Origin: a virus
Lineage: Duplodnaviria; Caudoviricetes
Strand: one strand, 5' to 3'
Virus record (IMG/VR): IMGVR_UViG_3300028361_000031
Coordinates: 1 to 58,833 of that record
DNA: 58,833 bases
Within the stretch, counting starts at the first letter, position 1. Every line of letters begins with the position of its first letter. The notes below the pieces were generated by a model, which searched no databases, was not told the DNA's origin, and saw only the letters and a program-made list of their open reading frames with translations. Position numbers and translations under genes: made by a program. Shown in pieces: positions 3,091-8,587 of the stretch.

Positions 3091-4140
3091 ATGAAACAGT
3101 TACATAAAGATATTTTAGAATCAATAAAAACTCAGCCCGTCCGCCCGAGTACACGTAATGGTCGTGTACTTATAGTGGACGGGCTGTGACTGAACACCTT
3201 TATTCGATGTTGGTCAAGTATACCAACTATGAACGAAGATGGTGAACACGTTGCTGGTGTTACTGGTGTATTAAAATCAATAGGTTTAGCAATACGCACC
3301 GTGAAACCCACTAGGGTCATCGTAGTGTTCGATGGTAAGGGGGGATCCACTTCCAGAAAAAAGGTATTCAGTGGTTACAAGGAAGGTAGGGAAAAGAATA
3401 AATTAAGGGTAAATCGACAGTACGCTGATATGATGAACGAGGAAGATGAACGTACATCTATGAAACGTCAATACGTTTGGTTATCCGATATGATAGATCA
3501 CCTACCCATGACAACCATGATGTACGATGGCATAGAAGCGGATGATGTTATGGCTTACATAGCAACCGATTTACTAAAAGAAGATGAGCAGGCGGTGTTG
3601 ATGTCAACCGATAAGGATTTTTTACAACTTGTCAATGACACCACCATCGTCTGGTCACCTACTAAAAAGAAAATATATAACAAACAAACGATAAAGGAAG
3701 AATTTGGATTGGAATCTAAGAACCTATTGTTATATAGGGTATTGGATGGCGATGTCTCGGATAGAATTCCTGGAGTTAAGGGTGTGGGATTAAAGACTCT
3801 TTTGAAACGAATACCCGAAATCTCCGGTGAAGAACAAATGCAAGTAAGTGATTTACTTAGGTTGGCGGAAGAAAAACGTGGTAAAATCAGAATATATGAT
3901 ACTATATTGGAATCCAAGGAACAAATTCTAATGAACGAGAAACTTATGCAATTGAAATCTACCACCATGATAAATGGTATCTCCAAGATGAAAATCTTGG
4001 ATCTATATAATGAAGAACTCAAACCAGTAAACAAAATGAATTTCTTCAAAGTTTGTATGAAGTATAAGGTTATCAACAATATGGGAGATATTAACAAGTG
4101 GCTACACACTACTTTCAGTAATTTGATTACAGAAAAATAA
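3091..4140 (+). CDS. 5'-3' exonuclease / RNase H (FEN-like), interrupted by in-frame CTG-TGA-CTG at 3184-3192
   Basis: ATG 3091 reads MKQLHKDILES...RVLIVDGL*LNTFIR in frame with ORF 3229..4140 (VVFDG, EADDV, STDKDFLQL, GDVSDRIPGVKGVG). Confidence 0.85.
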
Positions 4141-4940
4141 TGGATACAAGTGAACAACTAGATACCTTACAAGAATTTGGCCATAGTTTTCAGACAAAAG
4201 TAATAGCAGCATTATTAACGGATATTAAATTTTTAGATTCATTATCCGATATAATGCATATTAAATTCTTTGAATCTGAAGCTAACAAATGGATTGTGGG
4301 GGAAATTATAGATTACCATAGACAATATAAGAAATCACCATCAATGGATGTTTTCAAGGTACAGTTATCGAAAATAGATGATAATAGTATCCTTAAAAAA
4401 ACAGCGGTGGATCAACTCCGTCATGTTTATACAAGCGTGGGTAACCTTGATATGGATTATATTAAAAATCAATTCACTAATTTTTGTATAAACCAAAATT
4501 TAAAGGTAGTTATATTAAAATCGGTCGATTTACTAAAAATTGGTTCATATGATAAAATAAAGGAACTTACCGATGAGGCACTAAAAGTGGGTACACAAGT
4601 CGATTTGGGCCACAACTATACGGAGGATTATGCGGAAAGATATGATGAAGATAAACGAACTACGATAAAAACCGATTGGGATATAATCAACGACTTGATG
4701 AACGGTGGTCTGGGACCAGGTGAATTAGGTGTAGTGGTTGCACCAAGTGGTGTGGGTAAATGTATAGGTGGTGATTCAACAATTGAAATACAGTATGATG
4801 AAATCGGATTTGAATTAGATAATGGGTATATTTTATGGTGTAAACCTTGGTATGTAATTCAATTGAATGATAATATTAATATAACGGCAAAACAGGCTCA
4901 ATTATTAATTTCCACCAATGGAAACGGTAAAACTATGTAA
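4140..4940 (+). CDS. DnaB/gp41 helicase part 1 + split intein N-fragment (IntN-1, 4761-4937)
   Basis: GGLGPGELGVVVAPSGVGK followed by CIGGDSTIEI (intein block A) at Walker A K|T. Confidence 0.9.
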   Translation: MDTSEQLDTLQEFGHSFQTKVIAALLTDIKFLDSLSDIMHIKFFESEANKWIVGEIIDYHRQYKKSPSMDVFKVQLSKIDDNSILKKTAVDQLRHVYTSVGNLDMDYIKNQFTNFCINQNLKVVILKSVDLLKIGSYDKIKELTDEALKVGTQVDLGHNYTEDYAERYDEDKRTTIKTDWDIINDLMNGGLGPGELGVVVAPSGVGKCIGGDSTIEIQYDEIGFELDNGYILWCKPWYVIQLNDNINITAKQAQLLISTNGNGKTM

Positions 4941-4976
4941 AATTTTATTTTTTTATATTTATATTAAACTATTATA

Positions 4977-5882
4977 ATGGAATATATAGAATGTAAAATT
5001 TGTGGATTTGAGGGGAAGTCATTGACAAGTCATATAGCTCGGAAACATAATATGAAAATATCCGAATATAAATCTAAATATGGTGTAGATGTTGTTCAAA
5101 TAATGCCAGAATCACAAAAACAATATCTTTCTGAATTATGGAAAAATAGAATGAAGGAATCTATCTGGCAAGATAAATATAATAAAAATAAAACTTCTAT
5201 TTGGTCGGAGAAATATTGGATAAATTTGGGATATTCCAATCAAGGTGCAAAGAACAAAATTTCAGACATACAACGTAAGAATTCCAAGAAACGTGATTAT
5301 GATAAATCACCTAGTACATTAACAAAGGAATTTTGGATTAATAGGGGATACTCAAATGATGAATCAAAGAAACTAATTTCAGATATACAGTCAAAATTAT
5401 CAAACGTTTCTCCTAAGTTTAGTGGTAAAGCTCATAGTAAAAAAAGTAAATTAAAAACATCGAACTCTATGAGAAAATATATCACTAATTTTGGTAAAGA
5501 TAAATGGGTTGGTCATTTTGGTGATTTTAATGATATAAAATACAGAAGTGAAGATGAAATAGATATATTTAATTTTATATCAAATGAATTAAAATTCCAA
5601 GCCCAATCTAATGTTTTTATATCTGGATATAATGTGGATATTATAGTAGGAAATAAAATAATAGAATATTTTGGAATTTTTTGGCATGCACATACTGATT
5701 TATTTGAAGATAATGACATGCATCCTATAATAAATAAAACTGCATTAGAGATTAGGAAATATGATTTGGATAAAATTAACACATTACGGAATTTAGGATA
5801 CGATGTACTGGTTGTGTGGGAAAATGAATACAATATTAATAAAAAATTAATAAAAGAATCGATTCGTAAATATTTACAATGA
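4977..5882 (+). CDS. free-standing Vsr/DUF559-like homing endonuclease
   Basis: N-terminal CKICG..H Zn motif, YWINLGYS repeats, C-terminal VDI..IIEYFGIFWH..D..K..GYDVLVVWE; lies between intein halves. Confidence 0.8.
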   Translation: MEYIECKICGFEGKSLTSHIARKHNMKISEYKSKYGVDVVQIMPESQKQYLSELWKNRMKESIWQDKYNKNKTSIWSEKYWINLGYSNQGAKNKISDIQRKNSKKRDYDKSPSTLTKEFWINRGYSNDESKKLISDIQSKLSNVSPKFSGKAHSKKSKLKTSNSMRKYITNFGKDKWVGHFGDFNDIKYRSEDEIDIFNFISNELKFQAQSNVFISGYNVDIIVGNKIIEYFGIFWHAHTDLFEDNDMHPIINKTALEIRKYDLDKINTLRNLGYDVLVVWENEYNINKKLIKESIRKYLQ

Positions 5883-6991: not shown

Positions 6992-7050
6992 AAAATTTGT
7001 GTATCCGTTCCGATTTTATAAAAGCCTTATATTTATAATAAAGAGACATT

Positions 7051-8100
7051 GTGGAATTATATTATAAAAACGTCGATCATATTTTAAGGGTGAAACCTTT
7101 TAATGAATTTGACAATATAACGGATTATATTATAGAACAATTGAATGGAGTTGTAGTGGAATTTACTAAACAGGAAATTCAAAGTAAATCATTACATATC
7201 AAAACTTTAATTAAATATAATGTAGATGGTAATTGGGTTGATAAAATAAATGAAAGTAAAAAGTTTGGAAATGATAGTAGTTCATTAGACTGCTTTATTA
7301 CCAGATATGGTGAAAATATTGGGAAGCAATTATTTGATGAAAAGTTAAAAAACTCTATTATAACTGAAAAAGATTATATAATAAAATTTGGTAAACTATT
7401 AGGTAAATCTGAATGGAAGGAATTGTGTAAATCAAAAGGCAACTTTTCAGAACAACATTTTATAGATAAATTTGGTAAAAAACTTGGTAGACAAAAGTGG
7501 CAGGAAATATTGACCAAAAAATTAAAAACTCAAAAAGAGAATTTTAAGAATAAAAAATGGAAAAATGGACGAACACTTGAAGAATATCAAGAACGATATG
7601 GTATAGAAGATGGATATAATCGATGGAAATTGCGAAATGATAAACACAAATATAGATTATCCCGTGATTATTATATAGATAAATATGGTAAAGAACGAGG
7701 TTCAATTGAATATAGATTATATGTAGAACAAAATATTAGAAATTTTAAATCGACTGGTGGTTATAGTAAAATATCCCAACGATTGTTCAATCAAATTTAC
7801 AATAAATTAAACCGAAAACTTCAAGAAAAATGTAAATATGCAACTTGCGGTGGAGAAGTTAGATTTTTTATGAATAATGATAAGTTATTTTTAACCGATT
7901 TTAAATGTGGTAATAAAATAATTGAATATGATGGAACATATTGGCATAGTTTTAATGATACACAAAACAATGACAAAATAAAGCAATCGTTTTTAGAAAG
8001 TAAAGGATATACTGTTTTAAGAATACCGGAATCAGACTACCTAAAAAATAAACAACAAGTTATAAACAAATGTATAAATTTTATAAATGAAACAACATAA
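7051..8100 (+). CDS. free-standing Vsr/DUF559-like homing endonuclease
   Basis: Repeated (F/Y)I.K(F/Y)G..(L/E)G..W motifs, YSKISQ.LF, C-terminal DF..IIEYDGTYWH..D..K..GYTVLRIPE. Confidence 0.82.
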   Translation: MELYYKNVDHILRVKPFNEFDNITDYIIEQLNGVVVEFTKQEIQSKSLHIKTLIKYNVDGNWVDKINESKKFGNDSSSLDCFITRYGENIGKQLFDEKLKNSIITEKDYIIKFGKLLGKSEWKELCKSKGNFSEQHFIDKFGKKLGRQKWQEILTKKLKTQKENFKNKKWKNGRTLEEYQERYGIEDGYNRWKLRNDKHKYRLSRDYYIDKYGKERGSIEYRLYVEQNIRNFKSTGGYSKISQRLFNQIYNKLNRKLQEKCKYATCGGEVRFFMNNDKLFLTDFKCGNKIIEYDGTYWHSFNDTQNNDKIKQSFLESKGYTVLRIPESDYLKNKQQVINKCINFINETT

Positions 8101-8587
8101 TTTAAATCCGAAAGATTTTGAAATGGATGAAATCGTTTCAATTGAATTAATCGGTGAACGAGAAACCGTAGATATAACAGTAGAAGATACTCATATGTTT
8201 TTCGCTAATGGTATATACACCCATAATTCAGGCATTGACTCGGAAGTAATTGAAGCCGATAAAATAGCTGATTCATATGCAAAGGTAATGAACGCCGATT
8301 TCATTATGAGTTGGAGTAGAAGGGCAAAGGATAAGTTGAACAACACCGCACGTGCACATATTATGAAAAATAGATTCGGGCCCGATGGAATCACGTTCCC
8401 ATGTAAGATGGATACGTTTAACGGGGTTATAGAAGTTTATGATGGTAACTCCCCACAAGGTATAATAACATCCAAGGAAACAGAGAATGGTAACTCCGTT
8501 CAGAAACAATTACTTCATAAGAAGTATCTTGATACAATGGGAGTTATTTTGTTCCTTTTATCGGTTCTACCGATTTTGGGTACATAG
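8087..8587 (+). CDS. helicase part 3: IntC-2 (8087-8227) + C-terminal extein
   Basis: DEIVSIELIGERETVDITVEDTHMFFANGIYTHN|SGIDSEVIEADKIADSYAK...KNRFGPDG. Confidence 0.92.
   Translation: MKQHNLNPKDFEMDEIVSIELIGERETVDITVEDTHMFFANGIYTHNSGIDSEVIEADKIADSYAKVMNADFIMSWSRRAKDKLNNTARAHIMKNRFGPDGITFPCKMDTFNGVIEVYDGNSPQGIITSKETENGNSVQKQLLHKKYLDTMGVILFLLSVLPILGT

Follow-up and report, generated by a model that had tools for sequence, protein, structure and literature searches.

A phage DnaB/gp41-like helicase gene encoded in three pieces with two split inteins and intervening Vsr-like endonuclease genes

INTRODUCTION

Fractured genes consist of collinear halves on the same strand, which carry the N-terminal (IntN) and C-terminal (IntC) parts of a split intein at their facing ends; a free-standing endonuclease gene lies between the halves, and the spacers measure 27-51 bases (Dassa et al. 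2009, PMC2677866). We analyzed a related locus in an uncultured, myovirus-like lake phage, represented by the IMG/VR virus record IMGVR_UViG_3300028361_000031. The window, which is the whole analyzed stretch of 58,833 nucleotides (nt), contains the genes for gp32, RecA, a 5'-3' exonuclease, the replicative helicase, and ribonucleotide reductase (RNR) in this order. The helicase gene, at positions 4140-8587, is broken twice. As in the loci of Dassa et al., the host is a phage gp41/DnaB-like helicase gene, and a Vsr-like endonuclease gene lies between the halves. Collinear open reading frames (ORFs) with IntN and IntC ends occur twice, in ORF1/ORF3 and in ORF3/ORF5, and the spacers are 36 and 59 nt long, the second being slightly longer than described. 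In contrast to the loci of that paper, which have one fracture each, two fractures occur here in one gene, and the middle chain carries both an IntC and an IntN. Hairpins upstream of the endonuclease ORF, which the paper reports without presenting them as defining every locus, were not seen here.

Other described systems share single features with this locus. Contiguous DnaB inteins are located at site b (P-loop) and at sites a and c (motif H4), and some bacterial DnaB proteins carry b and a inteins together (Novikova et al. 2016, PMC4760082). The phage helicase belongs to this protein family and is occupied at the same two hot spots; however, the DnaB inteins splice in cis from one chain, whereas both inteins of the phage helicase are split and accompanied by free-standing endonuclease genes. 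Natural atypical split inteins have an IntN of 15-37 residues and are cut either after strand 2 (S1 type; VidaL, PolB16) or after helix 1 (S2 type; AceL-TerL, GOS-TerL) (PMC13014065). The first intein of our locus resembles the S1 type in being cut near its N terminus, with a C-piece comprising nearly the whole HINT domain, but its IntN has 59 residues, approximately 45 of which are additional and precede the cut. In engineered three-fragment ligation, a middle fragment is placed between an IntC and an IntN of different pairs, which are presumed not to cross-react (Pinto et al. 2020, PMC7090010). Those constructs were designed, whereas the similar layout reported here is natural, is located in an essential gene of a phage, and combines an atypical split with a canonical one. 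In the literature searched, the coverage of which was limited, we found no natural gene that has two split inteins and an IntC- and IntN-bearing middle chain; the matches to "three-piece" were synthetic inteins.

We consider it highly probable that two mobile split-intein cassettes with Vsr-like homing endonuclease genes (HEGs) reside in this one helicase gene, and that two independent class-1 trans-splicing reactions yield a helicase of 470 residues. Each element is of a known kind, and the locus is best described as a doubly fractured variant of the fractured-gene arrangement, with the addition of an unusually long atypical IntN.

RESULTS

A DnaB/gp41-like helicase is encoded in three pieces

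Five tightly packed ORFs occupy positions 4140-8587 of the + strand. ORF1, ORF3, and ORF5 encode the helicase pieces, and ORF2 and ORF4 are the endonuclease genes. Their positions, and those of the segments within them, are as follows.

4140-4940, + strand: ORF1, 266 residues, N-extein-IntN1
4140-4760, + strand: N-extein of the helicase, 207 residues, ending in the Walker A stub ...APSGVGK
4761-4940, + strand: IntN1, 59 residues plus stop codon (ORF1 208-266, Cys first); Cys1 with the strands of block A, followed by inserted strands and a helix
4941-4976, + strand: spacer before ORF2, 36 nt, A+T-rich
4977-5882, + strand: ORF2 (HEG1), 301 residues
5879-6991, + strand: ORF3, 370 residues, IntC1-extein-IntN2 middle chain
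5879-6286, + strand: IntC1, 136 residues (ORF3 1-136); blocks B, F, and G, ending in SHN, followed by Thr
6287-6718, + strand: middle extein, 144 residues, from the T of Walker A (GVGK|T) through the SQTNR motif
6719-6991, + strand: IntN2, 90 residues plus stop codon (ORF3 281-370, Cys first); Cys1 and block B S..H
6992-7050, + strand: spacer before ORF4, 59 nt
7051-8100, + strand: ORF4 (HEG2), 349 residues, GTG start
8087-8587, + strand: ORF5, 166 residues, IntC2-C-extein
8087-8227, + strand: IntC2, 47 residues (ORF5 1-47), ending in THN, followed by Ser
8228-8587, + strand: C-extein of the helicase, 119 residues plus stop

The start codon of ORF3 overlaps the stop codon of ORF2 (ATGA), and the beginning of ORF5 overlaps the last 14 nt of ORF4. 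No stable hairpin was found in the 36-nt or the 59-nt spacer (folding versus shuffles, z of 0.35 and 0.81), and no hairpin better than in shuffles was present at the overlapping ORF starts. Promoter and terminator scans revealed no enrichment over shuffled sequences (37 versus 41.3 and 4 versus 2.8, respectively). Contigs from two further sequencing runs (X3 and X4) bridged the ORF junctions with a single difference, G>A at position 8211 in one low-depth X3 contig; among the contigs of these two runs, no joined form of the helicase gene was seen.

The exteins were tiled by BLASTP on two uninterrupted helicases, those of Microcystis phage Mel-JY01 and Flavobacterium phage immuto, whose genes are found in a matching order (RecA, 5'-3' exonuclease, helicase, RNR). 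Residues 1-207 of ORF1, which show 42% and 39% identity to the two references, matched Mel-JY01 up to residue 202 and ended at GGGK. ORF3 137-280 (TWIL to SQTNR) matched residues 203-345 of Mel-JY01 (203-345/347 in the intact helicases), and ORF5 continued from S48 at residue 346/349 (346 in Mel-JY01), with 46-47% identity. The three extein pieces abut on consecutive residues of the intact helicases, with no gap and no overlap. Their predicted spliced product (207 + 144 + 119) has 470 residues, compared with 450 and 452 in the intact relatives. In the original prediction, which was made from the letters and ORF translations of the window, the order part1-IntN1 / endonuclease / IntC1-extein-IntN2 / endonuclease / IntC2-part3 had been proposed, with junctions GVGK|T in Walker A and SQTNR|S. 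The ORF list, the Pfam matches, and the tiling bear out this order, and the tiling places both junctions exactly there. We take SQTNR to be motif H4.

All three pieces matched PHROG 19 (DnaB-like helicase; ORF1, E 4.3e-26), and ORF3 additionally matched Pfam DnaB_C (E 2.3e-8). A homolog of ORF3 (P0038) matched PDB entry 8DUE, a "DnaB-like replicative helicase" (E 8.3e-16). No second DnaB_C match was present elsewhere in the record, which covers about 30% of the genome. These data confirm that a DnaB/gp41-like replicative helicase is encoded in three pieces.

Intein 1 is split atypically

Both pairs of intein halves named in the original prediction are present, but that prediction had overlooked how the first of them is divided. 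Intein 1 is cut atypically, into an IntN1 of 59 residues with only Cys1 and block A and an IntC1 of 136 residues with blocks B, F, and G, so that block B is located in the C-piece. This split is the more unusual half of the finding and likely the basis of the presumed orthogonality between the two pairs.

Contiguous forms of intein 1 were found in P0038, P0041, P0046, P0049, L020, and L040. Alignment showed that their variable linker lies exactly where the split N-pieces stop and the C-pieces start. Because contiguous forms exist and the split ends fall in their linker, the two halves of intein 1 belong together. The AF2 model of the contiguous homolog L040, built from a 30-row alignment, had a mean per-residue confidence (pLDDT) of 93.7 and a predicted template-modeling score (pTM) of 0.87. 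In this model, a strand (residues 10-23) is followed by inserted strands with a long helix (29-66), by a linker of lower confidence (67-73), and then by a strand (74-84) and a helix (85-91). The natural cut of intein 1 corresponds to the linker at 67-73, before the strand-helix unit.

A Foldseek comparison of the L040 model with the PDB returned 62 matches at E <= 0.001, and every listed row was an intein or a HINT-type protein, with VidaL (6VGV) in first place. In VIA-align, the Z scores ranged from 20.3 to 15.4 over 50 listed entries. The top chain was 4O1S (Z 20.3; root-mean-square deviation 1.9 over 144 residues), and dozens of inteins followed within 1-2 Z units; VidaL, with Z 19.6 and 12-20% identity, was tied with many of them. 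The alignments covered 120-147 of the 210 residues of L040, the insertion being the part that remained unaligned. According to this model of a contiguous homolog, intein 1 has a HINT fold.

A model of the complex between the window's own IntC1 and IntN1 scored 0.93, while the best of three controls scored 0.22. The mark for this test is reached by 116 of 157 solved complexes and by 2 of 215 mismatched pairs, counts that apply only roughly here, because our own alignments were used. Contact agreement between the runs was at least 98%, and the pLDDT of the partner was at least 83. The model supports binding of IntN1 to IntC1; its score may reflect likeness to solved split-intein complexes.

The class-1 splicing residues of intein 1 are all present (C1, H75, S-H-N136, and T+1). 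Cys1 of IntN1 was invariant in 10 of 10 rows, and H75, D118, C126, and S134-H135-N136 of IntC1 were invariant in 16 of 16. The length of the IntN1 relatives varied between 55 and 76 residues (55 in L004).

A related, atypically split intein was detected in a cultured T4-like phage, Vibrio phage vB_VmeM-32 (KU160494; L003, 1035-4110), in which it breaks gene 41 near Walker A. The IntN and IntC have approximately 27 and 117 residues, respectively, and an HEG1-like ORF of 378 residues lies between the halves. Unlike the lake phage locus, this gene has a single fracture, and the cut is located three residues earlier (AGVN|TGKS). In the database record, the C-terminal helicase ORF and the intein are unannotated. 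The uvsX-like gene of the same phage also carries an IntC.

Intein 2 is a canonical, gp41-8-like split intein

In contrast to intein 1, intein 2 is split canonically, into an IntN2 of 90 and an IntC2 of 47 residues. The two inteins are distant from each other, with 26% identity over approximately 100 residues. Pfam Intein_splicing matched the IntN2 region of ORF3 (E 4.4e-12) and, below the cut-off, IntC2 of ORF5 (E 2.8e-5). Contiguous forms were found in P0034 and P0040 and matched the gp41-1 intein (PDB 6QAZ) over its whole length (E 1.4e-16 for P0034). This sequence match points to a HINT fold for intein 2 as well.

The second pair had been likened to gp41-8, and comparison with the published sequences (Dassa et al. 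2009, PMC2677866, supplementary Fig. S1) agrees with this. A count by eye gave approximately 40 identical residues among the 89 positions of IntN and 21 among the 45 of IntC (approximately 45%), the piece lengths are nearly equal (89/45 residues in gp41-8, 90/47 here), and Ser occupies the +1 position in both. The net charge is +5 for IntN2 and -7 for IntC2, and the same polarity has been described for the halves of gp41-1 and gp41-8 (Dassa et al. 2009, PMC2677866).

Residues for class-1 splicing are present in intein 2, too (C281, S340..H343, H-N47, and S+1). N47 of IntC2 and S+1 were invariant in 9 of 9 rows, and the penultimate His was found in 8 of 9. We presume that the extein site of gp41-8 reads SQ.NR|S.

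The intervening genes encode predicted Vsr-like endonucleases

The product of ORF4 (HEG2) combines a repeat-rich N-terminal part, with long KYG repeats, and a DUF559/Vsr-like nuclease core with D...FWH...D motifs. It matched Pfam DUF559 (E 7.4e-7; 29.5 bits, above the cut-off of 20.6) and MTES_1575 (E 4.7e-9), and its C-terminal core matched PDB 3R3P, a "mobile intron protein" (E 6e-5). We take 3R3P to be I-Bth0305I, one of the EDxHD homing endonucleases, and the core family of ORF4 is presumably the Vsr-like family predicted by Dassa et al. An ORF4 homolog with 67% identity lies at the same place in L008.

The product of ORF2 (HEG1) has an N-terminal zinc finger of the Ros/MucR type (Pfam ROS_MUCR, E 2.1e-7), two W..GYS...ISDIQ repeats, and a putative C-terminal Vsr-like nuclease core. 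It matched PHROG 3339 (homing endonuclease, E 5.8e-7), MTES_1575 (E 0.0032; 18 bits, below the cut-off of 38.2), and, weakly, Vsr itself (PDB 1VSR, E 0.12). The core is shared between ORF2 and ORF4 (33% identity over 73 residues, E 2e-6), and both matched PHROG 22677. The Vsr-like nature that had been ascribed to the intervening genes is supported for ORF4 by its DUF559 and 3R3P matches, and the shared core suggests it for ORF2. The N-terminal parts of the two proteins differ, as expected for different target sites. Full-length homologs of ORF2 were found at the same place in L018, L024, L027, L091, and L093; the homolog in L021 is shorter (243 residues) and lacks the N-terminal part.

The doubly split state recurs among intermediate states

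A search with ORF3 retrieved 3274 proteins at E <= 1e-5, and the best 120 were classified by BLASTP with the segments of the window. These proteins, like the 94 viral and metagenome loci considered below, are ranked by likeness to the query, and the following counts among the best 120 of 3274 are therefore not population frequencies.

IntC1-extein-IntN2 middle chain: 29 (window's own included)
Only site 1 split: 42
Only site 2 split: 41
Contiguous intein 1 and split intein 2: 4
Split intein 1 and contiguous intein 2: 2
Intact: 2

The doubly fractured gene had been called unusual. This is correct for the literature searched, but not for metagenomes, in view of the 29 middle chains among the 120 best relatives of ORF3. 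The middle chains are 42-75% identical to that of the window. In all 29, His75 of block B, S134-H135-N136, C281, S340, and H343 are invariant, as is the Trp that follows the +1 residue of intein 1, and the +1 residue itself is always Thr or Ser; C126 is nearly invariant.

One metagenome contig (L028, 4251-8269) probably reads TGA as Trp; under this reading, it has a contiguous intein 1 and a split intein 2. All four in-frame stops in its helicase and HEG2 frames are TGA, and at two of these positions, one or two relatives have Trp.

Among the 94 loci, six are doubly split like the window (L018, L019, and L004-L007), and the five-part order thus recurs in independent contigs. In L018 (48% identity), both endonuclease genes are whole, whereas L019 lacks HEG1 and retains only a remnant of HEG2. 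L004-L007 represent one population, in which HEG1 is reduced to its last 59 codons in all four contigs; HEG2 is reduced to its last 20 codons in L004, L005, and L006, but is whole in L007. Apart from three synonymous changes in IntN2, next to the junction, the helicase coding DNA of L007 is identical to that of L004 and L006. This looks like a recent gain or loss of HEG2 within one phage population. The ratio of nonsynonymous to synonymous rates (dN/dS) is uninformative among L004-L007, which belong to one population and have 0-3 differences per segment. No helicase ORF and no intein half is disrupted in any of the six loci, including those with decayed endonuclease genes (L004-L006 and L019). 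What is left of the endonuclease genes immediately precedes the start codons of the IntC pieces and is presumably retained for the initiation of translation.

The states are scattered among one another in the tree of the middle extein, obtained by a quick search on 145 columns, and at least 18 changes on well-supported branches are required to explain the doubly split state. In three sets, identical middle exteins occur in different states. Between the window and L004 or L008, the halves of intein 2 are 83-94% identical, while the N- and middle exteins show 57-66% identity. This difference fits a recent horizontal spread of the cassette; stronger constraint on the intein could also explain it.

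In a collection of 50,697 phage records, which may leave out the window's own genome, megablast with positions 4140-8587 gave no match. In the same collection, tblastn with ORF3 matched 1198 records, none of which covered at least 80% of ORF3; a middle chain of this kind is therefore absent from the phage records listed. A scan of one genome per prokaryote species yielded nine loci, and none of the nine was doubly fractured.

DISCUSSION

Proposed mechanism

According to our model, two different mobile cassettes would have entered the only DnaB/gp41-type helicase gene of the record, each at its own site and each composed of a split intein and a free-standing Vsr-like HEG between its halves. Three chains would be translated: N-extein-IntN1 (266 residues), IntC1-extein-IntN2 (370 residues), and IntC2-C-extein (166 residues). 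IntN1 would contribute the first strands and Cys1 and would dock into the nearly complete HINT domain of IntC1, the split being located before the third strand. The positively charged IntN2 (+5) would pair with the short, acidic IntC2 (-7) in the manner of canonical gp41-type split inteins. Each pair would then undergo class-1 splicing, with an acyl shift at Cys1, attack by Thr+1 or Ser+1, cyclization of the terminal Asn, and an O-N shift. In this way, the Walker A loop (GVGKT) and the SQTNRS motif would be rebuilt.

The different cut positions of the two inteins within the fold would preclude cross-pairing: a combination of IntN1 and IntC2 would lack the middle of the domain, and IntN2 with IntC1 would duplicate that middle. 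The putative endonucleases would cut intein-free alleles of co-infecting relatives, and each cassette could spread independently by homing. The locus had originally been predicted to be a natural three-fragment ligation. The IntC-extein-IntN middle chain supports this layout; the ligation itself, with trans-splicing in both pairs and orthogonality between them, we infer from the conserved catalytic residues, the folds, and the complex model.

Alternative explanations

Several observations weigh against this model. The argument for orthogonality is a topological one. The assignment of HEG1 as a nuclease relies on weak scores (MTES_1575 below the Pfam cut-off, E 0.12 for Vsr), and HEG1 of the window reads GIFWH, with Ile in place of the Asp found in eight of nine other HEG1-like ORFs (GD[FY]WH), which suggests that this copy may be weakened as a nuclease. 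In block B of intein 1, the Thr/Ser position is occupied by Gly (GWEH) in the window's subgroup, while the more distant middle chains have S..H, and this replacement could slow the first step of splicing. A second helicase gene could be located elsewhere in the genome, of which the record represents about 30%. Finally, the tree was obtained by a quick maximum-likelihood search on 145 columns, and the relatives and loci were selected by likeness.

Some of these points would be compatible with a decaying, nonfunctional helicase gene that was wrecked by two endonuclease insertions, while another phage or host helicase performs replication. Such a helicase could lie in the part of the genome beyond the record, and the Asp missing from HEG1 of the window is retained by eight of nine relatives. 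However, each of the three chains has an open frame and aligns exactly with its part of the intact helicases, the residues for splicing do not vary among 29 clusters with identities as low as 42%, and the split layout is kept despite the decay of the endonuclease genes, which is the opposite of what a dead gene predicts. We therefore regard this explanation as highly unlikely. It is also very improbable, in our judgment, that the intein halves serve as a noncovalent protein clasp and that the helicase works as a complex of three chains without splicing. Split genes without inteins can work, as in the case of Aeh1 nrdA (cited in Dassa et al. 2009, PMC2677866). Yet here all residues needed for the chemistry are present and invariant (Cys1, block B His, the terminal HN/SHN, and a nucleophilic +1 residue), and both breaks are located inside motifs, the Walker A loop and SQTNR, which a bulky, unspliced domain would interrupt.

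The Gly in block B raises the question of whether one intein alone splices in this phage, for example because intein 1 is weakened, so that the mature protein would consist of two chains. In addition to the replacement of S..H by GWEH in the window's subgroup, the often slower rates of natural atypical split inteins (reviewed in PMC11766414) are in line with this possibility. But the Gly variant is common to the eight chains of the subgroup (P0001-P0008, the window's own among them; 66-75% identity to the window), in which all other catalytic residues are kept, and the complex model places IntN1 with high confidence; splicing of a single intein is thus very unlikely. Joining of the pieces at the RNA level by introns, or a chimeric assembly of the contig, is hardly credible. 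The interrupting segments are protein domains that are in frame and have HINT folds, neither an intron nor any other Rfam family was detected between positions 3900 and 8900 at E <= 1, contigs from two further runs span the junctions, and the same order is found in independent contigs. We therefore retain the model of two split-intein cassettes with two independent trans-splicing reactions.

Implications

If this model is correct, a laboratory method, the ligation of three fragments by two orthogonal split inteins, recurs naturally in a phage gene that is essential for replication. Its natural recurrence in such a gene implies that the two reactions run quickly and cleanly enough to support replication. 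The locus would offer a presumably coadapted orthogonal pair of one atypical and one canonical split intein, and the atypical one has a 59-residue N-piece with an added module, beyond the range of 15-37 residues. The relatives form a natural series of intein-free genes, contiguous inteins, split inteins with an endonuclease gene, and split inteins with a decayed endonuclease gene, some with identical exteins in different states. This series should be useful for studying how inteins are split and spread and how they lose their endonucleases, and it suggests that one gene can be invaded by two homing elements, independently and more than once.

A more far-reaching scenario, which we put forward tentatively and consider rather unlikely, assigns functions to these features. 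The unusual 45-residue extension of IntN1 would act as an affinity module, and the combination of an S1-type with a canonical pair would have been naturally selected for a strictly orthogonal, one-pot ligation of three chains. The double split would have been co-opted, so that maturation of the helicase is gated by the supply of three chains, and this would provide a posttranslational control of replication timing. Co-option is suggested by the fact that the double split outlives the endonuclease genes.

Other split or interrupted genes in the window

The gene for the large subunit of RNR is also fractured (10983-14111). Its first ORF (10983-12059) ends in an IntN (...SNL|CVTADT), and its second (13056-14111) starts with an IntC (...ILVHN|CSEIAL) that is very similar to the NrdA C-inteins in the supplement of Dassa et al. 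(PMC2677866). The ORF between them (12117-13055) has an HNH-like motif and no Pfam match. A clamp-loader-like AAA ATPase gene (region 28635-30702) is split by a split intein, too, with 28 nt between the halves: the ORF at 29283-29933 ends with an IntN after ...ILDE|C, and the ORF at 29962-30702 starts with an IntC (...LTHN|C). A GIY-YIG/I-TevI-like endonuclease gene (28635-29279) lies just upstream of these halves and not between them.

The gene for a family B DNA polymerase (17327-21338) is interrupted by a contiguous intein (GWN|CIPTNS ... STHN|CDNF) that has two LAGLIDADG-like motifs. In addition, the gene is divided into two ORFs, with the break located just before the Y.DTDS motif; there are no intein halves at this break, and the 127-nt spacer contains a G+C hairpin. 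Finally, a pair of adjacent DruA-like ORFs (Pfam PF14236; E 8e-24 and 2e-20), together with a Mom-like ORF (E 9e-47), is found in this phage replication region, at 24615-26988 and 16307-17107.

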